DNA of 64,000 bases from Escherichia coli (GCF_045037415.1 NZ_CP173438.1), one strand, 5' to 3'. Numbered from the stretch's first letter, positions 42,501-48,500 are shown. Program-made: the numbers.

Positions 42501-45500
42501 ACCTGTCCGTTTTGTACTATGCTGCGTAGCCAAAACCGATAACATCCGCATTTACCTGGTATTCCATGATGAGTTCACGCAGCGACTGATAGAGGAAGGA
42601 AAGATGGTTAGTAAAAGCAAGGCGCATTGCCGCCGCATGCTGCAGGCATTGCAACAGACGAGAGCAGGTATTTTTGACCAGTTGGAAAACTGCCAGCATA
42701 CTTTGCCCGAGTATATCGCCATCTCATCGGAAACCAGTGCAACTCTTATTCATCGGGTTCCACCAGAGAAAAAGAAGAAATGAACAGTGAGGCGTTGTGT
42801 GGCATACAACGCCTTCTTCCATCATTCCTCGTCAGCCATGACAAAAATATAACCGCTGGCTCTTTCATTTTTCTCCTGCTTCCAGCCCCTCTCTACCTGG
42901 AAGCATCAAGGACGTGACGGCGTAAAGATAAATTGTCTCTTCACTCCCTGACAGGGGCGATTCTTTTCAAATCGCCATTTCGCCATGGCCTTCACCACTT
43001 CATCACGAAACAAATTATGAGGCTCTGAGCGGAGAAAAACGATCCGTGTCACAGTCCCATCAGCACCAATATCGAACTTAACCTCAACCAGCCCCTTGAT
43101 ATAATTTGCTGCAGCATATTCCGGATATCGTGGATACACCGTCACTAATTGCCGGGGCTCATCAGCTTTTTGCTGCGAGCATCCCACTGCCAGGACAGAT
43201 AACAGAAAAAGTAGTAAAAGGCGTCTTTTCATTTTTATTCCTACGGGTCTTATTCTGACAATATATCCTGTGTTCCAGACTGCCACATCACCACATCCTG
43301 TGCCATTATCTGACTCACATTACATACATCGCATCGGGATACAGTAGTAGCACTTTCTGTAATACAGCTTCCTGTTTCTTCCACCATCGCACCGGGATAA
43401 ACCCGCGAATCATTAACGCGGTAAAAACCCGGTGTGCATCGTTTTTAATTATTCCCGCACACTCACGCAGAAGGAATTCCCCGTCGGGCTACGGTCATGG
43501 TTAATGCGGGAATACGGCGACGATACAGCGCAGCTAAAAGGGTAATGGACGGATAGACCGGTTTATTTCATTCCACAGGATTCTGAGTGTCCCCAACTTC
43601 CTCCAATAGTCTGAGCCCACCTGTGTAGTTTTAATTTTCATCAATCCATTTAACTATCGTTTAATTGTTGTCACATAGGATTCTGCCGTTTTTAACAATG
43701 CAGGATAATAAGATGAAAAAAATGTTGTTTTCTGCCGCTCTGGCAATGCTTATTACAGGATGTGCTCAACAGACGTTTACTGTTGGAAACAAACCTACAG
43801 CAGTAACACCAAAGGAAACCATCACCCATCATTTCTTCGTTTCGGGAATTGGGCAGAAGAAAACTGTCGATGCAGCAAAAATTTGTGGTGGTGCAGAAAA
43901 TGTTGTTAAAACAGAAACCCAGCAAACATTCGTAAATGGATTGCTCGGTTTTATTACTTTAGGCATTTATACTCCGCTGGAAGCGCGTGTGTATTGCTCA
44001 CAATAATTGCATGAGTTGCCCATCGATATGGGCAGCTCTATCTGCACTGCTCATTAATATACTTCTGGGTTCCTTCCAGTTGTTTTTGCATAGTGATCAG
44101 CCTCTCTCTGAGGGTGAAATAATCCCGTTCAGCGGTGTCTGCCAGTCGGGGGGAGGCTGCATTATCCACGCCGGAGGCGGTGGTGGCTTCACGCACTGAC
44201 TGACAGACTGCTTTGATGTGCAACCGACGACGACCAGCGGCAACATCATCACGCAGAGCATCATTTTCAGCTTTCGCATCAGCTAACTCCTTCGTGTATT
44301 TTGCATCGAGCGCAGCAACATCACGCTGACGCATCTGTATGTCAGTAATTGCCGCGTTCGCCAGCGTCAGTTCTCTGGCATTTTTGTCGCGCTGGGCTTT
44401 GTAGGTAATCGCGTTATCGCGGTAATGATTAACCGCCCATGAAAGGCAGACGATGACGCAGATAACCAGAGCGGAGATAATCGCGGTTATTCTGCTCATA
44501 CCTCACTCTCTCTGAGCGTTCCGCCAGCTTCTTTGAATTTTGCAATCAGGCTGTCAGCCTTATGCTCGAACTGACCATAACCAGCGCCCGGCAGTGAAGC
44601 CCAGATATTGCTGCAACGGTCGATTGCCTGACGGATATCACCGCGATCAATCATCGGTAAAGCACCACGCTCTTTAATCTGCTGTAATGCCACTGCGTCC
44701 TGGCTTTTGGGGGAGAAGTCTTTCAAACCAAGCTGTTTACGGTAAGCATCCCACCAGCGTGAAAGAAGCTGATAACGTCCGGCGGCTGTTGATTTGAGTT
44801 TGGGGTGTAGCGTGACAAGTTTGCGAGGGTGATCGGAGTAATCAGTAAACAGTTCGCCGCCAACAATAACATCATAACCGTGGTTACGTGTCGGTTGTCG
44901 CCCGTTATCCGTTCCTTCTGACCACGCCAACATATCGAGGAAGGCTTTACGCTGAGGATTAAGATTTTGCATTTTTCACCCCTGTCAGTCGTTCCCAGAA
45001 GTACGTCAGTGCAACCGAACCCATCGCACCACTAATCCCCGCTGTCGCGAGAATCATGTAAATACTGAATCCACTTTCGATGCTGATCAGGCCACCAATA
45101 ACACCGGTGAATCCTGATACCACTATTTGAGCCAGAGCATTTATCCAACTCCACGTTGCTTTACTCTGCTTCACATCTATCAGGTAGCGGACCAGACCGC
45201 CCCAACCTGCGATGATCAGCAAAACGAGCCAGAACGCTCCGGCAAGGCTCTCTTTTTCGTGCATATGAATAGCCAATGTTTCGCCGCCGACAAAAGGCCG
45301 GGACGTTAAATGTCAGAAATCAGGCTCACGGGGTAATTTAACGACAAAGCACGGAGTTGATGCTCCCCGCAAGCCTGGAATAAAAAAGCCAGCATGTAGC
45401 TGGCAACAGAGGGTTAAGCAATATCAACTCAACAGCTGAAGACACCCTGGCTGGGGTAGGTTGGAAGGCTACTCACCGTTCAGAAACAGAAAAGCCCAAG

Positions 45501-48500
45501 GCTTTAAACCTCGGGCTTGAATTTGGATTACTGCCAGTGCGTACAACATTGGCAAAATATCAGATTTACATAAAATATATGATTTTTAATCCAGTTTTGC
45601 AATATCTTGCTGTGAAAATATGGTCTTTTGTTTTGAACGTGTTTTCGTTAAAAGCAATAAAGCTTGGCTATCAAGCTGTAGAAAAATGTGCTTCATTGCA
45701 ACCCAGCGTTCAGTAAATGTCTCAGACCAGTTTTTTGATGTCACTCCCACCAGTGATGCCAGCTCCTGGTATTCATAGGTCTTACGCCCTGCCAGCTCGT
45801 TCTTCACATCCTGTGCCGCCAGCCAGATCAACTTCTTCAAACGTTCCAGTGTTTTACCTGCAATTTTCCTGGTACCCAACAGAGTCTTAAACTCGCTCCA
45901 TGCCCACTGCGTTATGGTGACCTGATGTTCCCAGCGAACACTTTCGCTGTAACTCCACAGCAACCACGCTTTCTGATGTTCTTCGAGAGACAGAACCGCG
46001 CGGCGCCATGACGAGGTTGAGAACTCAACCTGGCTGACCAGTGCAATGGATGAACCTTTTGCGTACAACTGCTTACCGGAAATCGGCGGATTATCCAGCG
46101 TAATCATCCTGCCAGTTACCTCATCCAGAATGCGCGGCTTCTTTCGTTTGTATGTACCAGTATCAAATTGTGCATGCTCCAGCCAGGCTTCAAGCTGTCC
46201 TTTCGTTGCTCCGCTCAAATCAGCGGTAGCCACAATGAGTTGCTCGCGGACATACTGTAAATATTGGGTATTCATGCGGCAGCTCCTTTCAGTGTTTTGG
46301 CGTAATTCTTCAGTATCCGGTAATCGGTCAAAACAGAACTAGGAAAACGATATAAGCGCAGGCGCACCCAGCGGCGGCGAAGACGTTCTGCCATATAAGA
46401 CTCAAACATCATTCATCTCCCAGTTCAGTGATAGTCAGCTCCAGCTTCCCACCTTTGGTAACGGGCATCTTCACAACGCGGTAATCAACGACCTGAGCAT
46501 CATCCAGCCAGAAACCTGCTTTGGTGAGTGCGTCAAAAGCGGCCTTTTGCAGATTATCAAGGTCACGGCGACGGCGATCCGGCATGTGGCACTCAATGCT
46601 GATTTTCACAGGAATAGCCAGGCCGATATCCAGCATTGCGTTTTTAATGATTCGGGCGACATTATCGCGGTATGCCTGCCCCTCTGCGCTGATATGCGTG
46701 CGTCCGCGATTATGGCGGTAATAGCGATTATTGCTCGGCGGCCAGGGTAGTGTGATGCAGTAAGTATTCACGCCTTAATTACCCCCTCTTTCAGCCAGAT
46801 AACCTGTGTTCTCGCCATACCTTCCAGCGCACATTCTTTTGCATATCCAGCGTCAACAAAATGCGTGCGACGGTCGATTTCGTCGTGGCAGGCAGAACAT
46901 GCAATGGTGGCAATCAGGTCTGGCGGTTTGATACCGGTACCGCACAATCCAGCCAGCCGGATATGTGCCAGTACTGACGTTTCAGGATTGCCATTACATA
47001 CGCCAGGGATTCTTACCTGGCATTCCCGACCACGCGCTGCTTTTCTCAAGTCAGCCATGATTCCTCCTTGCTGCCAGTCGCAACCATTTTTTATCAACCA
47101 GGCTGGCGGTATATCCGAGCAGTGTTGGTATTTCGGATGGTTTCAGCTCAGGCTTACGCTTACGACGATTTGGTACTCTGTAGATGTGTCCGTTCATGAC
47201 ACGAATAAGCGGTGTAGCCATTACGCCTCCTGCTTGTCGCGCAGCAGCTGGAACTCGCAGCTCTGCGGAATAGTCAGGTGGCAGCCAATATTCACCGCCC
47301 AGGCTTCAACCTTACACAGGAAGACATACATCTCTCCGGTATCGAGATCGGAGGTATGGCGTAACGACTGGATAGTAGTGATTTCGCCGGTTACGACATC
47401 AACCAGGTCCTTGGTTTCATAACCGAGGTATGTGTGTTTGAGAGCATCTTTTACCCATGCTGCGGTAGCGAACGATTTCCCCCTGCTGATGAGGTATTCA
47501 CTGATTTCGCTGTACCACATGTGGCTGAGTGCATTCTGGGAAAGACTGCGTTTCTCACGCCACGGTTTAAGCACCATGCGAAAGCATTTTCCGTTCTCCA
47601 GATAAGGCTGGATCTGCTGGCCGATAGCGATGAAGTTACCGCGATGCAGTTTGATGCCATCTTGTGGTAGGTTCACGCTTCACCTCCACAGAGGTCAGAC
47701 GCTAGATGCAAAAAAACGCAGGTGCATTTCTGCATCTGTGAAGGGAGAAGAGAGTTTGGATTGTGTGTGCGCATAAACGTCCCCGTTTAGCGCAGAAGTC
47801 ACCGGAGTTGTTCAGGCTCCGGTGATACAATTATGGCGAATTGATTATTCATAATCAAACAAGATAAGGTCTCAAACTTCATGCAAGCCAAGATTTATTT
47901 CTGACAGAATTATACAAAGAAGCTATTGGTCAGAATCTACTCGGACTGTAAAACATACGCATAACCTTAAGCTCTCACTTTAAGCATTGTTGAAATAATA
48001 GCCGTCAAGTACAACCTTAACCACGACTGGGATATTTCCCTGGCTACCACGAGTTGTACGGCTATTAAACTGCCGTTAAATTTAGTAAGAGAATTTCATC
48101 CGATAAGTCAAGGCATGTAAAACATGAAAATTAACAAGATATTATCATCTGCAACACTATTGTATGGTATGTCAATGGCCATGTCGGTCGGGAGTTGTGC
48201 AACACCTGTCCAGACTAATCTTCCTGGTTACACCCCGGGTGCAGATATCATTAGTGTTTCACCGACCAGAAACCAGGTCGATCTCATTGGTGATGTTGTT
48301 TATTCCCAGATAAAAGGAACTCGTTCTGTCAGACAGCTTCACATGTCAGTTCTTGTCCCGCGAACAAATGATTTAAAACCAGCCATTATTTATTATCCCG
48401 GCGGCGGATTCATGTCTTCTGAACATGACAAATTTATTGAAATGAGAATGGCTCTGGCAGAAGCTGGTTTTGTTGTGGCCGCTGTAGAATACAGAACAAT

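Follow-up and report, generated by a model that had tools for sequence, protein, structure and literature searches.

In the 64,000-nt stretch of Escherichia coli NZ_CP173438.1 (GCF_045037415.1) analysed here, hereafter the window, a 309-nt intergenic region (45585..45277) lies between the Q antiterminator gene and the holin gene of a prophage. The neighbouring genes are all on the minus strand, in the order NinB, YbcO, RusA, Q, intergenic region, LydA-type holin, lambda-R-like endolysin and Rz/Rz1, and the bor gene is on the plus strand. The prophage also contains cI-like and cro-like genes, O, P and nin-region cargo, followed by terminase and structural genes, and looks largely complete, with the whole lysis and virion operon downstream of the region. 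The Q-holin region is a further copy of the known phage-82-type late switch, carried by about 15% of complete E. coli genomes: a 501-nt query across it matched Escherichia phage PhiR47_2 at 100% identity and was recovered over at least 80% of its length in 789 of 5,426 complete E. coli genomes, O157:H7 strains among them, with 678 of the 789 at 99% identity or more. We consider it very probable that the region is a Q-dependent late control region of the phage 82 type on the minus strand, with tandem terminators and with a conserved hairpin, here termed the late-leader hairpin (LLH), on the read-through mRNA. The layout expected for Q-dependent antitermination, recognised in an earlier note made from the sequence alone, was borne out, as Q, the late promoter pR', terminators and holin follow one another in this order. 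That note described the region without the LLH, which lies between the second terminator and the holin, and its account was to this extent incomplete.

Analysis of the Q gene and the sequence overlapping its end revealed a promoter of the phage 82 type. The Q gene (46275..45586, minus strand, as are the features below unless indicated) encodes a 229-aa protein of family PF06323 (E 2.6e-93) that is identical to phage 82 Q (X92588) at 223 of 229 residues (97%). Promoter-like hexamers, which the earlier note had also reported, are present as TTGCAA-17-TATATT, matching 9 of 12 positions. The -35 hexamer (TTGCAA, 45602-45597) lies inside the final Q codons and is constant across the window, 82, 434 and Gifsy-1; among 11 Q82-family phages it is TTGCAA in ten and TTGAAA in phiES15. 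The authentic 82 record stops at the Q stop codon with ATTGCAAAACTGGATTAA, the same as the window, which means that the final codons of Q double as the -35 hexamer and the first part of the spacer. The -35 hexamer and the putative Q-binding spacer overlap the end of Q, outside the range 45277-45585 originally proposed for the control region. The 17-nt spacer AACTGGATTAAAAATCA (45596-45580) holds the Q stop codon and a putative Q-binding element (QBE), and matches the authentic 82 sequence exactly in its 5' part. The QBE of 82 pR' sits between -35 and -10 (PMC4914094), and by analogy with 82 we infer that the spacer is the location of the QBE here. The -10 hexamer (TATATT, 45579-45574) is conserved across the Q82 family.

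Downstream of the hexamers, the initially transcribed sequence carries the features published for 82 pR'. The predicted transcription start is the A at 45567, the first residue of an initial AAA (45567-45565), with an uncertainty of about 3 nt; the start of the Rfam IsrJ model and the mapped start of the 74-nt IsrJ RNA lie 3 nt upstream of this position. From +1 the window reads AAAUCUGAUAUUUUGCCAAUGUUGUA, in which an extended -10-like element, TGaTATTTT (+6..+14), followed by GCC (+15..+17), constitutes the predicted sigma70 pause element (45562-45551). After GCC there is an AT-rich stretch with U at +25, and the predicted pause is at +25/+26 (45543/45542). The wild-type 82 pR' transcript has an AAA start, causing initiation stuttering; its -10-like pause element is nearer consensus than that of lambda and includes an extended -10; and its pause is sigma70-dependent, at +25/+26, with U at +25 and GCC at +15-17 (PMC5001585). 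All of these published features (AAA, extended -10-like element, GCC and U at +25) fit 45567-45543. When 11 Q82-family phages with Q proteins 48-97% identical to the window Q were aligned, no variation was seen in T-TG-TAT of the pause element, in the G at +15 or in most of the -10, and the sequence beyond about +17 diverges; in this alignment, conservation up to about +17 with divergence after it is the pattern expected of a DNA-encoded sigma70 pause signal.

The first intrinsic terminator, t1 (45518..45482), consists of a 12-bp stem at +50..+76 followed by UUUUCUGUUU, and its hairpin (45518..45492) folds at -18.4 kcal/mol (z -5.1 versus shuffled sequence). A hairpin at about 45493-45517 had thus been recognised correctly, whereas its assignment as a pause element did not hold, as the 82 pause is driven by sigma70 and DNA at +25/+26, corresponding here to 45562-45551 and 45543. 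A hairpin at +50..+76 that is followed by UUUUCUGUUU and aligned with the IsrJ terminator is instead the terminator t1. The alignment with IsrJ comes from the Rfam model isrJ (RF01393), which matched the window over its full length (model positions 1-75) at 45570..45491, with 30.4 bits against a gathering score of 37 (E 0.0058), and which places the window hairpin on the IsrJ terminator. The same model scored 100.3 bits on Gifsy-1 as a control. A Rfam scan of 44000-47000 returned isrJ as the sole match, and STnc100, AsxR and AgvB were not found in the window. Experiments have detected IsrJ as a 74-nt RNA that is initiated at a start of its own and ends in a Rho-independent terminator (PMC2330248, PMC4825925); it has a role in Salmonella invasion, and its expression has been shown for Salmonella only. 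Short terminated pR' RNAs are documented for lambda (6S), 21, phi80, 82, P22 and Stx phages (StxS) (PMC7547250), and our literature search found no link between IsrJ and any Q-dependent late promoter.

From these data the short RNA of this region is most likely an RNA of about 80 nt ending at t1. The predicted IsrJ-like leader RNA (45567..45484) folds at -27.6 kcal/mol (z -4.0) and contains a 5' hairpin at +13..+37 (45555..45531) that is weak and alone not significant (-8.7 kcal/mol, z -1.8); most other leader types, including the Rfam IsrJ model, have a hairpin of different sequence at this position. To examine leaders more broadly, viral contigs were scanned for the promoter block, yielding 68 unique downstream variants, two of which were chance matches. 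Of the 66 genuine variants, 63 had a GC-rich hairpin and U-tract ending at +45..+77, formed from at least eight unrelated stem sequences and folding at -8 to -20 kcal/mol. The position of the hairpin and U-tract is kept despite unrelated stems, indicating that early termination is conserved and its sequence is not. Among variants of the window type, the t1 stem is altered yet paired, with G-C replaced by A-U or G-U. An alignment of 27 IsrJ-like leaders with MAFFT and RNAalifold recovered only six outer terminator pairs because stem lengths differ, and was replaced by per-sequence folding.

The second intrinsic terminator, t2 (45404..45379), has a GCCAGC/GCUGGC stem at +164..+180 followed by UUUUUUAUU. 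Its hairpin, GCCAGC-UACAU-GCUGGC (45404..45388), with a U6 tract extending to 45382, folds at -11.9 kcal/mol (z -3.6). t2 is kept in all window-type variants, and in other phages its stem covaries with the T-run retained. The canonical terminator noted earlier at 45380-45404 is real, as the second of a tandem pair and not as a lone tR'. With t1 and t2 read as tandem terminators, an RNA of about 187 nt would come from read-through of t1 to t2; the expectation of a short terminated RNA thus stands, in the form of the predicted IsrJ-like species. The 87-nt spacer between the two terminators (45491-45405) contained no recognised feature and is conserved among window-type prophages only.

Directly after the t2 U-tract lies the LLH, a 57-nt element at +191..+247 (45377-45321). 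It has a 13-bp closing stem, CAGGCUUGCGGGG (45377-45365) paired with CCCCGUGAGCCUG (45333-45321), and a conserved loop core, GUGCUUUGUCGUUAAAU, and folds at -27.6 kcal/mol (z -4.7). Two pattern scans of viral contigs for the loop core gave 127 unique 95-nt matches, a few of them by chance, in which the stems vary but remain complementary, for example CAGGCUCACGGG/CCCGUGAAGCCUG, CAGGUUCCGGG/CCCGAGAACCUG and CCCAGACCCUCGGG/CCCGCAGGGUCUGGG. Among 20 representatives aligned with MAFFT, 90.2% of cells were paired, and sliding the partner by 1-3 columns lowered this to 50% or less; changes on both sides occur in 6 of 12 pairs, and no shuffle reached the covariation score. A covariance model, R1, built from this alignment found one copy in the window (45395..45307, 76.9 bits) and 96 places in a second locus set, from which an alignment of 86 distinct sequences resulted. 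In this larger alignment, which was fitted to R1, 10 of 12 pairs showed compensatory changes (69 cells), and none of 500 shuffles reached any of five measures. Across the LLH alignments, slid controls were at most 52% paired versus 87-90% for the true register. The two weakest pairs stem from bulge placement and not from a real break in the stem; without them the stem is 95.5% Watson-Crick, with G.U in 22 cells versus A.C in 8. The excess of G.U over A.C favours the LLH being an RNA made from the late-transcript strand but is not decisive. Two other identities were ruled out, a coding sequence on account of the stem covariation and of indels whose lengths are not divisible by three, and a terminator because no U-tract follows the hairpin. 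A degenerate second LLH considered after t1 scored 7.7 bits, which is not significant.

Comparison of LLH-containing loci showed that the element is coupled to a terminator and precedes holins of many kinds. Between t2 and about 45320 the window shares 75-85% identity with holin-upstream sequence in phages with other Q and holin genes, namely mEp237, the P22-like UPF_BP1 and another E. coli prophage. In 115 of 125 unique contexts (92%) the LLH stem is preceded by a terminator (hairpin and T-run) whose end lies mostly 7-10 nt upstream, and these 115 contexts include 65 distinct terminator stems. The first genes that follow encode small membrane proteins of more than 12 unrelated holin-like types, usually starting 62-87 nt past the loop core; representatives matched PF16083, PF16080/PF04971, PF05106 or PF16931, and some had no Pfam match. 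The Q proteins encoded upstream belong to PF06323 (the window, BHUENT6) or PF03589 (Gifsy-2, mEp237) or have no Pfam match (UPF_BP1). Thus, the LLH is independent of both Q family and holin family. It occurs in more than 100 lambdoid phage variants and in 905 of 5,426 E. coli genomes, and was not found in lambda, 434 or Gifsy-1, neither R1 nor the core pattern giving a match in lambda. A scan against Rfam 15 gave no match at E ≤ 1 over the window LLH (45395-45307) or the Gifsy-2 copy, annotations beneath LLH matches in phage and E. coli records were limited to the adjacent holin gene or 'hypothetical protein', and literature searches aimed at the LLH found no description of it; a 2026 preprint on Pas small RNAs (sRNAs) concerns other RNAs from Q-holin regions.

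Gifsy-2 provides an example of the same overall layout with a Q of another family. In this prophage (L294 1380-1935) a PF03589 Q is followed by a promoter, a proximal terminator (1458-1490), about 300 nt, a second terminator (1788-1815), the LLH (1817-1875) and a truncated holin (STM1024). Its initially transcribed sequence, AACGATGGG, resembles the lambda pause element.

We propose the following mechanism for the region, in which constitutive initiation, the sigma70-held pause and Q loading are established for the family and predicted for this copy. RNA polymerase would initiate at about 45567 from a constitutive sigma70 pR' that overlaps the last Q codons, and sigma70 would then re-bind the extended -10-like element (+6..+14), holding the polymerase at +25. 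Without Q, transcription would stop at t1, producing the IsrJ-like RNA of about 80 nt, and polymerase that leaked past would stop at t2. Q would bind DNA between the -35 and -10, load onto the paused polymerase and render it resistant to termination, such that the modified polymerase would read through t1 and t2 into the holin, endolysin, spanin and virion genes. The LLH begins right after the t2 U-tract, and so would be made only in read-through transcripts. There it may act on the late mRNA as a processing site, a 5'-end stabiliser and/or a modulator of holin translation.

As to the particular role of the LLH, the reading that we prefer, though at less than even odds, is that the hairpin defines where the late mRNA begins, either marking its 5' end or generating it; cleavage in the AU-rich segment between the two hairpins would leave a protective 5' hairpin. 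This idea is drawn by analogy with lambda sib retroregulation and the ompA 5' stabiliser, in which an RNA structure present only in read-through transcripts or at a processed 5' end alters the fate of the mRNA. The analogy does not extend to sequence relation; sib and ompA have no counterpart of the conserved LLH loop, and any cleavage by RNase III or RNase E is hypothetical. Control of holin translation together with a small hairpin proximal to the ribosome-binding site is unlikely, and an interaction of the conserved loop with a protein or sRNA is more doubtful again. In its broadest form, our proposal is that the LLH is an undescribed class of cis-acting RNA, common to many lambdoid phages of Enterobacteriaceae regardless of Q or holin type and present only in Q-antiterminated transcripts, that sets late mRNA fate, and that IsrJ is the terminated leader of a Q82-type pR'; we put this forward tentatively, as rather less than an even prospect. 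The LLH might work by cleavage that releases the leader sRNA or by a factor recruited by the loop, helping to set holin expression and lysis timing.

Several observations weigh against the reading of the region as a phage-82-type late switch with an LLH on its read-through mRNA. The 9/12 hexamer match is not distinctive, as 3 kb of sequence contained 4 promoter-like sites versus 3.1 +/- 1.7 expected, in contrast to terminator-like sites, which were enriched (9 found versus 3.0 +/- 1.6 expected); the promoter call consequently rests on homology, to 82 and to the promoter block of Gifsy-1 IsrJ, and not on the hexamers alone. Beyond the Q stop codon, the window was compared with 82 pR' by published feature descriptions only. 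The U-tract of t1 is interrupted (UUUUCUGUUU), which makes its efficiency uncertain, and the isrJ score falls below the Rfam gathering score. One variant type in viral contigs (L023, L045 and L096) has the Q82-type promoter and pause element with no early terminator, its first terminator-like site ending near +204. The G.U/A.C asymmetry of the LLH is modest, and its function as given above is a proposal. Finally, late-switch activity at this locus, including promoter activity in this strain and its dependence on Q, is predicted from sequence.

Alternative explanations of the promoter-proximal elements fared less well. Were the hairpin at 45518-45492 a pause hairpin aiding Q loading and 45404-45388 the lone terminator, the region would produce a single 6S-like RNA of about 187 nt, an arrangement to which the more canonical U6 tract of t2, the interrupted tract of t1 and the size of the t2 product, similar to that of lambda 6S RNA (194 nt; terminator at +193), would all be suited. 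However, the pause in the 82 system depends on sigma70 and DNA and occurs at +25, upstream of this hairpin, which begins at +50 and runs into a U-rich tract; its homologue forms the 3' end of the observed 74-nt IsrJ, whose U-tract is likewise interrupted; and a hairpin and U-tract at the t1 position are conserved over unrelated stems. We therefore regard a pause hairpin as highly unlikely. It is less credible still, to the point of being nearly negligible, that there is no independent late promoter and that the hairpins terminate an early rightward (nin-Q) transcript with the hexamers present by chance. Both t1 and t2 would also halt unmodified transcripts coming through Q, and a promoter-like score of 9/12 is by itself not above chance, but 82, 434, Gifsy-1 and more distant Q82-family phages share a conserved block made up of the -35, the -10 and the first 11 nucleotides of the transcript, while the flanks diverge; in Gifsy-1, where an inserted cassette parts the block from Q, a separate start for IsrJ has been mapped to it; and 82 pR' has been characterised biochemically.

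Two further alternatives concern the nature of the LLH and of the leader RNA. The LLH lies at a mosaic junction, where the Q/pR'/t1 module and the t2/LLH/holin module recombine independently, and its loop sequence is highly conserved, as might be seen if it were a DNA-level feature, either a protein-bound inverted repeat or a recombination linker between lambdoid modules. This we judge very improbable, since the arms change yet stay complementary (10 of 12 pairs) whereas a protein half-site would conserve sequence, G.U pairs outnumber A.C (22 versus 8), and the position of the element is fixed relative to an RNA terminator. A somewhat better case, though one we still find unlikely, can be made for the leader RNA being chiefly a trans-acting, Hfq-dependent sRNA of the IsrJ, StxS or Pas type that is kept for the host, with antitermination secondary: IsrJ affects Salmonella invasion, Hfq binding and targets are known for StxS and for Pas sRNAs of Q-holin regions, and the region is conserved at 99% or more in 678 E. 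coli genomes. Against this, the prophage looks largely intact with a complete lysis and virion operon, indicating that a cis function of the leader region is still needed. A trans-acting sRNA is moreover compatible with Q-dependent late control by tandem terminators and the LLH, and does not exclude it.

Comparison of the window with known systems placed it closest to phage 82, with which it shares Q (97% identity), an identical -35 and proximal spacer, AAA, pause element, GCC and U at +25, and a terminator downstream. Unlike phage 82, the window copy belongs to a prophage of E. coli that carries a LydA-type holin gene together with lambda-like R/Rz; the base-by-base comparison with authentic 82 covered the sequence up to the Q stop codon. 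The region also resembles lambda pR'/6S/tR' in having a constitutive promoter after Q with a sigma70 pause close to it, and a short RNA that terminates unless Q brings about read-through (in lambda, into S, R and Rz). In contrast, lambda uses another Q family, lacks sequence similarity, pauses at +16/17, has one terminator at +193 and has no LLH, and lambda was not among the blastn matches to the window region. StxS of Stx phages and PasA, PasC and PasD, from prophages of enteropathogenic and enterohaemorrhagic E. coli, are likewise short RNAs from the Q-to-holin interval with intrinsic terminators, StxS being the terminated pR' transcript; StxS and the Pas sRNAs bind Hfq. They differ from the RNA predicted in the window in their Q families (PF03589 for PasD) and sequences.

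The relationship to IsrJ of Gifsy-1 (RF01393) extends from the promoter into the leader. The promoter block is 91.5% identical over 47 nt, and the first 11 nt of the transcript are the same, as are the CAAAUUCAAGCC linker, the two-hairpin architecture and the distance to the terminator; the internal sequence differs, in keeping with the score of 30.4 bits against 37 for gathering. In Gifsy-1 (L002 1185-2047) an isrK-orf45-anrP cassette lies between the Q body and the late promoter, the last Q codons (ATTGCAAAACTGGATTAA) remain after anrP, and Gifsy-1 Q aligns to residues 1-216 only of the window Q. The Gifsy-1 isrK region also matches the Rfam families C4 and c4-a1b1, and the cassette may be related to the C4 antisense-RNA immunity cassette of phage P1.

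These results link an sRNA implicated in Salmonella invasion to a Q82-type late promoter and offer an account of how IsrJ-like RNAs are synthesised and shut off. If IsrJ is the terminated leader of a Q82-type promoter, the Gifsy-1 Q protein (AntQ) should influence both its synthesis and its read-through. An equivalent RNA of about 80 nt is predicted in hundreds of E. coli strains, O157:H7 included. The LLH, as a covarying, terminator-coupled element before unrelated holins, suggests that the lysis cassette is subject to a further, undescribed layer of control. For phages the timing of lysis is central to fitness, and in Stx-like prophages it governs toxin release.

A diverged LLH (22-42 bits with R1) was observed right after the first terminator in some phages with IsrJ-type leaders (L015 790-873, minus; L020 1875-1958, plus; L085; L116). 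This suggests an ancestral layout of pR', IsrJ, terminator, LLH and holin, from which the t1-spacer-t2-LLH order of the window could have derived.

On the holin side, the first late gene (45276..44959) encodes a LydA-type holin of 105 aa (PF16083, E 8.2e-22). Two candidate starts lie four codons apart, TTG at 45276 (M-A-I-H-M...) and ATG at 45264, an arrangement that recalls the dual start of the lambda S holin/antiholin; many LLH-linked holins start with MKM, MRLMKM or MTRM. Just upstream of the holin start is a small hairpin (45305..45282; -11.8 kcal/mol, z -1.8, alone not significant) that may mask the ribosome-binding region of the holin, and analogues of it were seen by eye in mEp237 and UPF_BP1. 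The endolysin that follows has no Pfam match and is annotated as 'lysozyme R' in PhiR47_2; from this annotation and its resemblance to the lambda R sequence we presume it to be lambda-R-like.

Two promoter-like sites were noted on the opposite strand. The sequence TTGCAATATCTTGC (45596-45609, plus strand) fits the CII-box consensus TTGCN6TTGC and overlaps the pR' -35, and in the record of phage 434 the corresponding site is marked as binding CII and as carrying the paQ -35 signal. The relevance of a CII box and paQ here is doubtful because the cII position of this prophage encodes a 179-aa protein (57616-58155, minus strand) instead of a lambda-type CII of about 97 aa. The other site, TTGGCA-16-TAAAAT (45549-45576, plus strand, antisense into Q), scores 10/12, better than pR', and is probably a chance match, as its -35 lies where Gifsy-1-type leaders have another sequence.

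Finally, the nin-region cargo between P and NinB (48124-55652) includes a 1,302-aa inverse-autotransporter (intimin/invasin-like) adhesin (51744-55652, minus strand), an IS66-family element of three open reading frames (49182-51598, minus strand) and an alpha/beta-hydrolase esterase (48124-49155, plus strand).

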